NCBI GenBank assembly: GCA_037131675.1 | Contig: JBAXQO010000003.1 | Span: forward strand, 2,487-66,486 | Direction: 5' to 3' | Length of the DNA: 64,000 nt | From: a bacterium | GTDB taxonomy: Bacteria; Patescibacteriota; Minisyncoccia; Phycocordibacterales; CAIZIN01 | Shown here: piece by piece, positions 61,183 through 62,455 of the stretch | How the letters are laid out: the number at the start of each line of letters is the position of its first letter | Position numbering within the stretch: position 1 is the stretch's first letter | Notes under the pieces: generated by a model | What the model was told of the DNA's origin: nothing | Databases searched by the model: none | The model's input: only the letters and a program-made list of their open reading frames with translations | Position numbers and translations under genes: made by a program

Positions 61183-61820
61183 TGATTATGAAATTTACTT
61201 CAAATAAAAAAGGATTTACCCAGACACCAACTTCTGTCTTAAAAGCTTTTTATCGATACCTTTCATCGCAGCATCACTCAATAAAACAGAATTTGGTGTC
61301 CGGGTTTACTCTTGTTGAAACACTTGTTGCTATTTCAATACTTATGCTTGCTGTTACTGGTCCAGTGTATTTTGCATCAGAAAGTTTGAAAGCTGCAATA
61401 TATGCTAGAGATCAAATTACTGCATTTTATCTTGCTCAAGATGCATTTGAACAGATTCGGGGGTTGAGAGTTAATAATATTGCTAATAATAGTCCGTGGC
61501 TAAATGGAATTTCTGGTGTGTGCGACAGTTTATGTAAAATTGATCCATATTCTAATTTGAACTCCAACTCTTATCCTTTGGCGTGTGGAAGTGATTGTGG
61601 ACAAATAAAAAAAACACTTGATGGTAGGTATGGTTATGGTTCTAATTCAGATTGGACTGATACGCCATTCAATAGATCTATCAAGGTAGAAACTACTGAA
61701 ACTGATAATGGTACACCACCATCAGCGACTGAGGTTAAAGTTACGGTAACAATTACCTGGAGATCCGGTACTATAGATAGAGTATTTACTGCTTATGAAT
61801 TTTTGCGTAACGTAAGCTAA
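61182..61820 (+). CDS. Minor pilin-like protein (start uncertain; a TTG/GTG at ~61297 would give a short leader)
   Basis: NLVSG-FTLVETLVAISILMLAV prepilin-like segment ~40 aa into the ORF. Confidence 0.6.
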   Translation: MIMKFTSNKKGFTQTPTSVLKAFYRYLSSQHHSIKQNLVSGFTLVETLVAISILMLAVTGPVYFASESLKAAIYARDQITAFYLAQDAFEQIRGLRVNNIANNSPWLNGISGVCDSLCKIDPYSNLNSNSYPLACGSDCGQIKKTLDGRYGYGSNSDWTDTPFNRSIKVETTETDNGTPPSATEVKVTVTITWRSGTIDRVFTAYEFLRNVS

Positions 61821-61867
61821 AATATGAGACAAAAAAGATTTACCCAGGCACCAACTTTTAGATAATT

Positions 61868-62455
61868 ATGATTTTAAACTTAAAAAAAACAAATATTAAT
61901 AAAAAAATAAAACCAAATTTGGTGTCCGGGTTTACAATTTTATTTGCGGTGCTGGTATCGAGTATTGTGCTTGCACTCGGATTGGGTATTGTTGCTATTA
62001 CCATGAAAGAAGTTCAGCTTTCTGGTGCCGGACGAGATTCGCAACTTTCTTTCTATGCCGCAGACTCTGGTGCAGAATGTGGTTTTTATTGGGATCTAAA
62101 GGGGGAAAACTTTGCAACATCTTCTGTTGGTGGTATATCTGTAAACAACCTAAGTTCAATGACCTGTGCTGGAGGAGAAAACCTTAATCAAGATAAACCA
62201 TCTGATATAAGTGGGATAGCCAAAGGTGTTGATAGTGGTTCAGGTAGTTTGGATGCCACAACTACATTTTGGATATATATGGCAACAACAAATGGTAATG
62301 TTGGTGATCCTTCAAAACCTTGTGCACAGGTCCAGGTGGGTAAGCATGCTGACTCAGTTGGTGGGCAAATAAGGACCATTATTGACTCACGTGGCTATAA
62401 TACTTGTGCAGATAATCCTCGTCGCCTTGAACGAGGATATCAGATACAATATTAG
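61868..62455 (+). CDS. Minor pilin-like protein
   Basis: [26 protein letters not shown] prepilin-like segment. Confidence 0.6.

Follow-up and report, generated by a model that had tools for sequence, protein, structure and literature searches.

MITEs such as the Correia elements (CREE) of Neisseria and ERIC of enterobacteria are known to alter how adjacent genes are expressed: the inverted repeats of Correia elements are cleaved by RNase III, and promoters are contributed by some MITEs (PMC10969869). The Rickettsia palindromic elements (RPEs) are selfish palindromic DNA that lies inside protein genes, in frame, and is translated at positions that tolerate it (Ogata et al. 2000, 2002, as reviewed in PMC10969869). 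RPEs measure ~100-150 bp and are scattered over unrelated genes of alphaproteobacterial endosymbionts. REP/REPIN sequences are short imperfect palindromes, often inverted doublets around a variable spacer, that are dispersed between genes; they are not known to duplicate their target.

We analysed a 64,000-nt stretch of patescibacterial DNA (the window, termed WIN in comparisons between genomes), in which two minor pilin genes each carry a pair of inverted arms at the prepilin cleavage codons. These arm pairs are very probably the terminal inverted repeats of two small palindromic insertions, E1 and E2, that lack a transposase of their own (Table 1). As in MITEs, the elements are small (85-135 nt) and contain no transposase ORF, their terminal inverted repeats would give a long hairpin in the transcript, short direct target repeats lie on both sides (some copies lack them), and the same site is filled or empty in close relatives. 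They differ from MITEs in having conserved arms and highly variable cores, in recurring at one codon position of one gene family, and in keeping the host gene readable through a Gly codon, and in many cases a start codon, of their own; moreover, a search of 1.09 Mb of sampled sequence revealed neither a partner insertion sequence nor an autonomous element sharing their ends. The likeness to RPEs is a palindrome tolerated inside a gene and in frame. However, the host here belongs to another phylum, the insert lies in the cleaved signal peptide and never in the mature protein, and out-of-frame copies are rescued by an ATG borne on the element. As a likeness to REP elements, a shortened arm hairpin (ACCCCCACACCAAATTTTGGTGTGGGGG) is found within a multi-copy repeat of ~145 nt, whereas the target duplications set the present elements apart from REP/REPIN-RAYT systems, as does the lack of an evident conserved REP head tetranucleotide. 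In addition, a short ORF overlaps one strand of the second stem and ends just ahead of the main ATG, as in uORF or leader-peptide coupling; unlike the uORF of an attenuator, this ORF is a by-product of insertion, is not conserved at orthologous loci and has no apparent sensing function.

Repeated arms and their predicted fold

A preliminary description of this region had reported an arm pair recurring before both pilin genes, and motif, repeat and shuffle searches all recovered it. The left motif, TTTACCCAG(A/G)CACCAAC, lies at 61215-61231 and 61839-61855, with no third match in the 64-kb window at up to three mismatches. The right motif, AATTTGGTGTCCGGGTTTAC, lies at 61290-61309 and 61916-61935, and shuffled sequences predict zero matches. 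Both arm sequences are thus present exactly twice, in the pilin genes and nowhere else in the window. The combined two-arm pattern matches at these two places only, and none of 100 shuffled sequences contains it. Repeat search returned the two motif pairs as the direct repeats D10 (27 nt, 93%) and D8 (30 nt, 93%). The left and right arms are near reverse complements of each other (CCCNNRCACCAA...TTGGTGYNNGGG in a WIN-type element) and enclose segments of 62-64 nt; copy 1 forms an inverted repeat, I1, with 35-nt arms (61207-61241 and 61282-61316) that are 77% complementary. Between E1 and E2, the arms are ~93% identical, whereas the cores are unrelated.

Table 1. Features of the two interrupted pilin genes, with positions in the 64-kb window (a slash marks the prepilin cleavage site)
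Feature	Position	Strand	Remarks
Gene 1, PilV/GspI-like minor pilin	61188..61820	+	Weak NCBIfam matches to gspI and PilV; Pfam N_methyl at residues 40-59
Left target copy TTTAC (or TTTA), gene 1	61215..61219	+	Phe/Thr codons of the original KKGFT N-terminus
Element E1, 85 nt	61220..61304	+	Arm cores 61218-61230 (left) and 61293-61305 (right)
Right target copy TTTAC, gene 1	61305..61309	+	Phe(+1) and first two bases of Thr(+2), mature pilin
Orphan ORF, MRQKRFTQAPTFR and stop	61824..61865	+	Former gene-2 start with its first seven codons, reading on into E2; TAA at 61863-61865
Left target copy TTTAC, gene 2	61839..61843	+	Duplicated target
Element E2, 87 nt	61844..61930	+	Arm cores 61842-61854 (left) and 61919-61931 (right)
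Right target copy TTTAC, gene 2	61931..61935	+	Phe(+1)/Thr(+2) codons
Gene 2, PilX_N-like minor pilin	61868..62455	+	From the element-borne ATG; new 21-residue leader, then /FTILFAVLV

In agreement with the earlier proposal that the arms pair in mRNA, RNAfold predicted the stem ACCC.AGACACCAA / UUGGUGUC.CGGGU for both copies, in the MFE structure as well as in the centroid. Twelve of its 13 pairs have predicted probabilities of 0.83-1.0 in 280-nt contexts, the 13th being one A.C mismatch, and the arm duplex energies are -26.3 and -18.5 kcal/mol. The right arm also spans the in-frame TTG/GTG and the Gly(-1) codon, as had been described. These predictions speak for an alternative reading, in which a dedicated cis-regulatory hairpin shared by the two mRNAs hides the natural TTG/GTG start and a mimic uORF tunes the opening of the stem. 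The left arm of copy 2 lies inside the short ORF, so that translation of this ORF would melt the stem; moreover, the host genome has no Shine-Dalgarno sites, and local RNA structure should therefore matter for start choice. However, only copy 1 folds better than shuffled sequence (z -2.3), whereas copy 2 does not (z -0.6). No relevant family was matched in Rfam, either at the gathering threshold over the whole window or at E<=10 over 61100-62000, and none of the matches was significant. A terminator scan flagged neither stem, because the loops are too long, and promoter-like matches are rarer than in shuffled sequence.

Interrupted and uninterrupted pilin genes

The reading frame of gene 1 encodes a 39-residue leader, MKFTSNKKGFT-QTPTSVLKAFYRYLSSQHHSIKQNLVSG/FTLVE, from its ATG; the start given previously, at 61182, is a GTG two codons upstream of that ATG. 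Uninterrupted orthologs read ...KKGFTLVE (P0004, P0005 and P0014; at the DNA level, L165 with 73% identity and L166 with 55%). Together with the 5-nt duplication, E1 adds 90 nt in frame, and its terminal GGG (61302-61304) is the present Gly(-1) codon of gene 1. The insertion contains no stop, and the frame is open through it in both lineages that bear the element (WIN and L160/P0002), the copy in L160 differing by 11 substitutions. Translation would start at the old ATG, and the leader would have been lengthened from nine to 39 residues, a form that PilD presumably still processes.

Comparison of WIN with L160 gave a pN/pS of 0.47 for the insert, 0.43 for the original leader and 0.20 for the mature pilin, and the synonymous rate of the insert is not lowered (0.20 vs 0.29). 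The insert of E1 evolves in the manner of a leader peptide. The arms and the core diverge at the same rate, which argues against a selected hairpin, as does the open frame from the upstream ATG of gene 1 in both element-bearing lineages.

In gene 2, E2 and its 5-nt duplication amount to 92 nt and shift the frame. Uninterrupted gene-2 sites begin MRQKGFTILF or MKQKGFTILF, and the original 5' end here reads MRQK(G>R)FT. The site is empty in L160, whose gene-2 protein is 90% identical and starts ATGAAACAAAAAGGATTCACAATT, whereas WIN has 92 extra nt between two copies of TTTAC; it is likewise uninterrupted in L166 and P0125. In-silico excision of E1 and E2 gives N-termini that match those of the uninterrupted orthologs for both genes (MKFTSNKKGFTLVE / MKFTSNKKGFTLVETLVAIS for one of them). 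The short ORF ahead of gene 2 had been noticed before, and its peptide and the left arm inside it both stand; its ATG, placed at 61815, is at 61824-61826. It had been taken for a mimic of the N-terminus of gene 1 but is the displaced original 5' end of gene 2, cut off by the insertion; with the frame broken, the old start is left at the head of a 13-codon orphan ORF.

E2 carries an ATG in frame with its own terminal GGG (61928-61930). This ATG lies 2 nt past the stop of the orphan ORF (TAAttATG, 61863-61870), in the loop and outside the arms, within an AT-rich context typical of the starts in this genome, and the core sequence ATGATTTTAAACTTAAAAAAAACAAAT is similar to what surrounds the internal ATG in the related elements of L163, L164 and L002. 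The pilin body would be translated from the ATG that E2 supplies, where reinitiation by ribosomes that have just terminated on the orphan ORF is plausible. On this arrangement, ribosomes translating the orphan ORF could unfold the stem and pass on to gene 2.

A survey of orthologous loci showed that most lack the insertions. Between the upstream stop and Gly(-1), the median distance is 38 nt over 80 PilV-like loci, compared to 119 nt here, and 36 nt over 49 PilX-like loci, compared to 107 nt; fewer than 90 nt separate the two at 60 of the 80 and 43 of the 49 loci, respectively. A leader end encoded by the arm occurs in only 4 of 120 PilV-like and 7 of 120 PilX-like protein clusters. The arms are largely absent from orthologous positions. 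With the structure lacking in most orthologs, and also in gene 2 of the relative with 90% protein identity, a shared post-transcriptional control element of the kind first proposed is not supported. The origin of the uORF as a displaced start of gene 2, and the position of the gene 2 ATG in the loop instead of an arm, also speak against a dedicated regulatory hairpin, which we consider unlikely.

The matched TTT AC(C/A) codons on either side of each element, with a stem that starts at the would-be take-off site, also recall programmed translational bypassing, in which ribosomes would take off at the upstream TTT-ACC, cross the hairpin and land on the downstream TTT-ACA, as in phage T4 gene 60 or the mitochondrial byp elements. 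In known bypass elements, the gaps are shorter than the ~89 nt found here. Furthermore, no stop directly follows the take-off codon, the next one being seven codons downstream; gene 1 is in frame and needs no bypass, and gene 2 has a good ATG borne on the element. The inverted repeats around the 62-64 nt segments could instead delimit a DNA inversion switch, but no recombinase gene lies nearby, and WIN, L082 and L160 have the same orientation, with no inverted variant among the related contigs. Either mechanism, bypassing or inversion, is extremely improbable. Integron attC sites and shufflon sfx sites were also considered and rejected, on account of ill-fitting core motifs and the lack of a recombinase.

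A family of elements in other Patescibacteria

Elements with the same arms interrupt the same codons in other patescibacterial pilin genes (L161, L162, L163, L164, L002, L100 and L153), one of them, L153, in a different pilin class (GFTLIELMVVVAI). TTTA(C) flanks both sides of WIN E1, WIN E2, L161, L163, L164, L100 and L153. In L162, where the gene reads GFV, the flanking repeat is TTTG and not TTTAC, which indicates that what is duplicated depends on the target and does not belong to the element itself. Between genes, too, there are elements of this arm type, with varied flanking repeats of 4-5 nt (TAAAA, TTGAC, TGAA, TAAA and TTTAC), although several intergenic ones have no flanking repeat. 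Of the 29 unique elements, 13 are bordered by direct repeats of 4 nt or more, compared to ~3.4 expected when flanks are permuted. The related elements measure 60-135 nt, with arms of 13-25 bp. TTTAC occurs 267 times in the window, and E1 and E2 both occupy Phe/Thr codons of pilin genes; element placement is far from random.

Alignment of ten elements revealed covariation between the arms: 84% of cells are paired, and both sides have changed in 12 of 25 pairs. The covariation score is 0.276; shuffles give 0.149, with none of 500 reaching the observed value, and sliding the pairing gives at most 0.105. Among arm mismatches, six are G.U on the sense strand and ten are A.C, without an excess of G.U. 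As judged from these sequences, such symmetry fits symmetric DNA ends better than a selected mRNA helix; a regulatory hairpin finds no help in wobble pairs or covariation that lack bias towards the transcribed strand.

The inserts of E1, L160-E1, L161-E1, L162, L100 and L153 are in frame and free of stops. By contrast, those of E2, L163, L164 and L002 are not, and an internal ATG appears to be used instead: all examined elements with a stop or frameshift (WIN E2, L163, L164 and L002) bear an ATG in frame with the terminal GGG. In L002-B, L100 and L153, an ATG lies six codons ahead of the cleavage site, within or adjoining the right arm, an arrangement that favours a hairpin controlling the start.

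Some of these observations could also be explained without transposition, if recombination or gene conversion, acting at the conserved GGNTTTAC and the codons of the N-terminal helix, had copied leader segments with their arms from one pilin paralog to another. Consistent with such copying, the arms of E1 and E2 are nearly identical and have a common copy-specific motif, AATAAAAC, around differing cores; in L161, the first ~110 nt of adjacent PilV-like and PilX-like genes are nearly identical, left arm included, and the unit in L002 is tandemly duplicated. Copying leaves unexplained, however, the intergenic copies with their varied short direct repeats, the duplicated TTTG in L162, whose gene reads GFV, and the clean target duplication at a formerly empty site. 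Conversion between pilin genes may take place, but it cannot be the origin of the elements, and as a full account of the arms it is quite improbable.

Several known types of mobile element were compared with the palindromic insertions. Insertion 3' of TTAC without duplication, as by IS200/IS605 elements of the IS608 type, was rejected, because the flanking repeat is not constant (TTTG in L162; TAAAA, TTGAC and others in intergenic copies) but depends on the target. Ends of the Tn3 type, considered because this family generates duplications of 5 bp, were rejected because they start with GGGG, whereas the inward-reading ends here start with CCCC. In the 1.09 Mb, a small sample, a search for arm pairs 250-4000 nt apart revealed no transposase, no enclosed ORF of transposase size and no longer element with the same ends, and the only such pair consists of the left arm of E1 and the right arm of E2, bracketing gene 1. 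The two-arm pattern had no matches in viral contigs. In metagenome contigs, where it covered spacers of 39-69 nt and missed longer and shorter members, a related repeat reaches at least 25 copies. This repeat is a 145-nt unit with two short hairpins; it was rejected as a WIN-type element and is a relative by arm sequence only.

Rebuilt cleavage sites and possible effects on expression

Each copy is inserted within the Phe(+1)/Thr(+2) codons of a type IV prepilin gene, at TTTA(C), and has duplicated this target of 4-5 nt. As the codon phase of insertion is constant, the last GGG of the element always becomes the new Gly(-1). The bases in front of this GGG would be read as ...N-L-V-S, and a terminal GGG serving as Gly(-1) after N-L-V-S rebuilds the G/FT peptidase site beside an intact hydrophobic N-terminus. 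The recurrence at one codon position exceeds a loose TNNA(M) preference and needs either selection or further target specificity; selection is an option because only the Phe(+1) position rebuilds G/F. Conserved arms around unrelated cores are unusual for a MITE family, and partial gene conversion could account for them.

The mRNA stem would be a consequence of the inverted element ends. It may lower or couple translation, or invite RNase cleavage, and the hairpin may thus affect expression, but selection for such a role is without support. A regulatory role may also have been gained after insertion; the stems are predicted to be very stable. We tentatively raise the possibility of selfish palindromes specialised for the type IV pilin genes of Patescibacteria, which home to the Phe(+1) codon of the class III signal peptide, rebuild G/F with their own GGG and carry an in-frame start and a lysine-rich leader; the host may in its turn employ the hairpin and the orphan uORF to adjust the amount of minor pilins, or turn these pilins on and off through excision of the element. 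Such elements would leave the pilin nearly unaffected, comparable to inteins and homing introns that keep their host genes functional.

Type IV pilins are central to the host attachment of these ultrasmall bacteria. In their very compact genomes, the cleaved prepilin leader appears to be a safe landing site for mobile palindromes, some of which carry the means of keeping the host gene functional. Should the hairpins influence translation or the stability of the mRNA, their insertion would offer a simple evolutionary route to an altered stoichiometry of minor pilins. For the annotation of patescibacterial pilins, long odd leaders, doubled GFT motifs and tiny upstream ORFs are to be read as insertion scars and not as regulators or new domains, which bears on how start codons are called and signal peptides predicted in type IV pilins. 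Long stretches ahead of the cleavage site are not peculiar to PilV and PilX, a restriction that we considered and rejected: at least 90 nt precede Gly(-1) at 13 of 71 PilW-like loci and at 32 of 101 loci of other pilins.

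E1 and E2 in the minor pilin genes

The window derives from a patescibacterium of low GC content (38%) and ends in a type IV pilus operon, with closest homologs in Paceibacteria/Parcubacteria MAGs. Two of its minor pilin genes, the PilV/GspI-like gene 1 (ATG 61188) and the PilX_N-like gene 2 (ATG 61868), carry small palindromic elements, termed E1 (61220-61304) and E2 (61844-61930), at the codons of the prepilin peptidase site (G↓FT). As the preliminary description had stated, the arms recur at both genes. The left motif lies at 61215 and 61839, its right counterpart at 61290 and 61916. 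No further match to either exists in the 64 kb at up to three mismatches, with essentially none expected by chance, and a repeat search recovered both direct-repeat pairs in addition to a 35-nt inverted repeat at copy 1. Each arm pair is flanked by a direct repeat of TTTAC, the Phe-Thr codons, which encloses 85 nt in E1 and 87 nt in E2. The inverted-repeat ends read CCAG(A/G)CACCAA... and ...TTGGTGTCCGGG; the arms of the two elements are near-identical, whereas the cores differ. In silico excision of E1 with one repeat yields ATG AAA TTT ACT TCA AAT AAA AAA GGA TTT ACT CTT GTT GAA (MKFTSNKKGFTLVE), and that of E2 yields ATG AGA CAA AAA AGA TTT ACA ATT TTA TTT (MRQKRFTILF). Together, E1's left arm and E2's right arm bracket the entire gene 1 body (712 nt; 61219-61930), in a composite-element-like arrangement.

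Features of the window and elements with the same arms in other Patescibacteria (window positions unless a contig is named)
Feature	Position	Strand	Remarks
Two major pilins	58076, 58693		operon order 1
Prepilin peptidase	59168		operon order 2
GspH/FimU-like minor pilin	59991		operon order 3
GspJ/PilW-like minor pilin	60679		operon order 4
GspI/PilV-like gene 1, PilX_N-like gene 2, ligA			operon order 5-7
TTTAC flanks of E1	61215-61219 / 61305-61309
TTTAC flanks of E2	61839-61843 / 61931-61935
Common 5' end of tandem major pilin paralogs	58075-58207, 58692-58824		133 nt, 91% identical
Terminator-like hairpins	57858-57898, 58600-58632, 59106-59144		perfect, 16-19 bp; one before the first major pilin paralog, one after each of both
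LOOT RNA (RF03000, 82 bits)	29841-29962	+
tmRNA with tag AKTAVKSPYYSVADLQFALA	33454-33838	-
tRNA-Ile, anticodon UAU	38598-38673	-
Element, PilV-like	L161		in frame; TTTAC on both sides
Element, PilX-like	L163		orphan start MKKPKLQNNHNAGFT...; internal ATG gives MFKKNLKKIN...RPNSVSG↓FT
Element, PilX-like	L164		orphan start MRKTIKKEILRFNDTFT...; internal ATG gives MLKKLITKIY...RPKLVCG↓FT
Element, PilV-like	L002 (2715-3020)		two tandem units, three copies of GGNTTTAC; orphan mini-ORF MKINTKQKGFTCTPNLV*; new start MPKLVCG↓FTLVE, its ATG within the right-arm stem
Element, PilV-like	L100		in frame
Element, different pilin class	L153		GFTLIELMVVVAI; in frame
Element, G-F-V pilin	L162		flanking repeat TTTG; compensatory CACTAA/TTAGTG arm change

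Most of 120 gene-1 homologs have short leaders ending ...KKGFTLVE, and a minority have a first GFT, about 30 odd residues and a second GFTLVE. In species-representative genomes, the stretch between the stop codon of the upstream gene and Gly(-1), the last leader residue, has a median length of 38 nt (80 PilV-like loci) and 36 nt (49 PilX-like loci); it is 119 nt for gene 1 and 107 nt for gene 2. The relative L160 (protein identity of 87% for gene 1 and 90% for gene 2) possesses E1 with 11 substitutions, and its uninterrupted gene 2 begins ATGAAACAAAAAGGATTCACAATTTTATTT, exactly the predicted empty site. Further gene-2 orthologs have their own uninterrupted N-termini, and the gene-1 site is empty in L165 (73% identity) and L166 (55%). 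E1 inserted before the split between the lineages of the window and L160, and E2 after it. The short ORF upstream of gene 2, previously regarded as a mimic of the gene 1 N-terminus, does exist, although it starts at 61824 rather than 61815. Since real relatives carry empty sites, it is not a mimic but the original gene 2 start, which runs into E2 up to a stop codon. This orphaned, now useless copy bears a G>R change.

The element family in other genomes

In other Patescibacteria, elements with the same arms are found at this codon position as well (see table). Because the G-F-V pilin of L162 has TTTG flanks, this case shows that the duplicated sequence is part of the target and not of the element. 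When metagenomes were scanned for the two arms with the flanks left unspecified, intergenic elements of the same arm type matched as well. These have complementary outer ends (ACCCC...GGGGT), though the pattern left them unconstrained, and flanking direct repeats of 4-5 nt that vary in sequence (TAAAA twice, TTGAC, TGAA and TAAA); TTTAC was found once in a non-pilin context. A flanking repeat of 4 nt or more is present in 13 of 29 unique elements, compared to ~3.4 expected from permuted flanks. About 35 of the 79 scan matches lack pairing beyond the forced bases, in agreement with a rough chance estimate of ~30. No autonomous partner element was found in 1.09 Mb of compared DNA or in viral contigs.

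In L161 (Paceibacterota MAG GCA_040879605.1), a PilV-like and a PilX-like gene lie side by side and are nearly identical over their initial ~110 nt (2501-2610 and 3136-3245); these duplicated 5' ends (MKRSK..EATPVASASADSQGRGRKNT..GFTPTP) include the left arm of the element. This suggests gene conversion between the two 5' ends; some of the element's spread likely proceeded via recombination between pilin genes, to which these duplicated regions point.

The E1/E2-type elements share most features of MITEs, namely small size, inverted ends, target duplication and empty versus filled sites, and, like Rickettsia palindromic elements, are tolerated within ORFs. Unlike both, the family inserts at one fixed codon of a signal peptide that is cleaved off, supplies the Gly(-1) codon and often supplies a replacement start codon. 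No description of such pilin-leader palindromic insertions was found in the searchable literature. Recurrence at the exact codon could reflect selection for rebuilding G↓F or an extra target specificity.

Reading of the interrupted genes and nature of the arms

The insertion codon phase is always the same, thus the terminal GGG of the element always encodes Gly(-1), following the residues ...(N/K)-L-V-(S/C). The G↓FT site would be rebuilt immediately ahead of the hydrophobic helix, which is left intact and contains Glu(+5). E1 and the duplication add 90 nt to gene 1, in frame and without a stop codon, and the frame from ATG 61188 is open in both E1-carrying lineages; the simplest reading would be initiation at this ATG, in a typical AT-rich context, with a 39-residue leader. 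The first GFT should remain uncleaved, since no hydrophobic segment follows it. By contrast, E2 adds 92 nt to gene 2 and breaks the frame. ATG 61868 sits inside E2, in frame with the GGG at 61928-61930 and in a typical start context. As it lies only 2 nt past the TAA of the orphan ORF, termination-reinitiation onto it is plausible. The 11 residues that E2 encodes from this ATG are similar to those at the internal start of the L163 element (M-F-K-K-N-L-K-K-I-N). Every examined pilin-site element with a stop codon or frameshift has an in-frame ATG, whereas the intergenic copies inspected have none; the rescue ATG could represent survivorship after insertion or a real adaptation of the element. 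Only 2 of the 52 long ORFs (≥150 aa, whole window) have an upstream Shine-Dalgarno-like motif (GGAG, GAGG or AGGA), hence such sites appear unused in this genome; AT-rich start contexts, such as ATAATTATG, are typical in the window.

The arms had been proposed to form an mRNA hairpin that sequesters the start codons. RNAfold indeed gave a 13-bp stem with one A.C mismatch in the MFE and centroid structures of both copies, with pair probabilities of 0.83-1.0 (280-nt contexts), and both stems should form in naked mRNA. The fold is better than that of shuffled sequence only in copy 1 (z -2.3; copy 2, z -0.6). Ribosomes that start at the upstream ATGs would move through the left arms and open them. 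Among 10 pilin-site elements, pairing holds in 84% of cells over 25 arm positions, with changes on both sides in 12 pairs. The inverted symmetry is maintained, as the arms covary (score 0.276) above shuffles (0.149; 0/500 as high) and slid controls (≤0.105). In these elements, sense-strand G.U cells (6) are not commoner than A.C cells (10). Between the window and L160, the arms changed at the pace of the core, pN/pS is 0.47 for the insert, 0.43 for the original leader and 0.20 for the mature pilin, and the synonymous divergence of the insert is not reduced. The G.U and A.C counts, the arm and core rates and the pN/pS values speak against selection acting on the RNA of the sense strand. In this small sample, the arms are suggestive of terminal inverted repeats or a mobility DNA hairpin rather than a selected mRNA helix, and nothing here shows the hairpin to be the reason for the sequence's presence. 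For Correia and ERIC elements, RNase cleavage at the inverted repeats or altered translation has been described (PMC10969869); by analogy, similar effects of the E1 and E2 hairpins on RNA cleavage or translation are possible.

Palindromes in pilin leaders

At least 90 nt precede Gly(-1) in 20 of 80 PilV-like (~1/4), 6 of 49 PilX-like, 13 of 71 PilW-like and 32 of 101 other pilin genes. These long stretches usually hold a strong hairpin, with the 3' arm abutting GGNTT(T/C)AC, and comprise several unrelated palindrome families. One family consists of heptamer-repeat hairpins, (AGCTTAC)n/(GTAAGCT)n or similar. Long hairpins of this kind were observed inside predicted pilin leaders of L016, L022, L043, L058 and L036, located 100-110 nt ahead of the GFT codons; once translated, they correspond to the SYKLQA / AYSLQL peptides of many database entries. 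A second family (P0013, P0018, P0012, P0026, P0147, P0151, P0156, P0157; L001:3600-3800) has a right end that encodes ...RKFTTG↓FT or ...RKTTTG↓FT. In PilV-like and PilX-like genes alike it occupies the GFT codons, with GFT duplicated here too (P0013, P0018, P0151), and P0151 has two such palindromes in tandem. A variant with an extra GC-rich hairpin is present in L059 and gene 2 of L161. The leader end xNLVSG↓F, which the arm of the E1/E2-type elements encodes, occurs in 4 of 120 PilV-like and 7 of 120 PilX-like protein clusters. Judging from these sequences, the cleaved prepilin leader of these gene-dense genomes seems to serve as a landing zone where insertions are tolerated.

In related metagenomes from groundwater, a separate repeat of ~145 nt is found at 25 or more places, each time with other flanks (L081, L085, L086, L089, L099, L106, L112, L114, L116, L120, L121, L124, L129, L131, L134, L139-L141, L145, L155 and L158). 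Inverted repeats (ATCCATACACCTTC / GAAGGTGTTTGGAT) form its outer ends, two short hairpins (ACCCCCACACCAAATTTTGGTGTGGGGG) are also present, and the unit may represent either a MITE or a gene for a small RNA.
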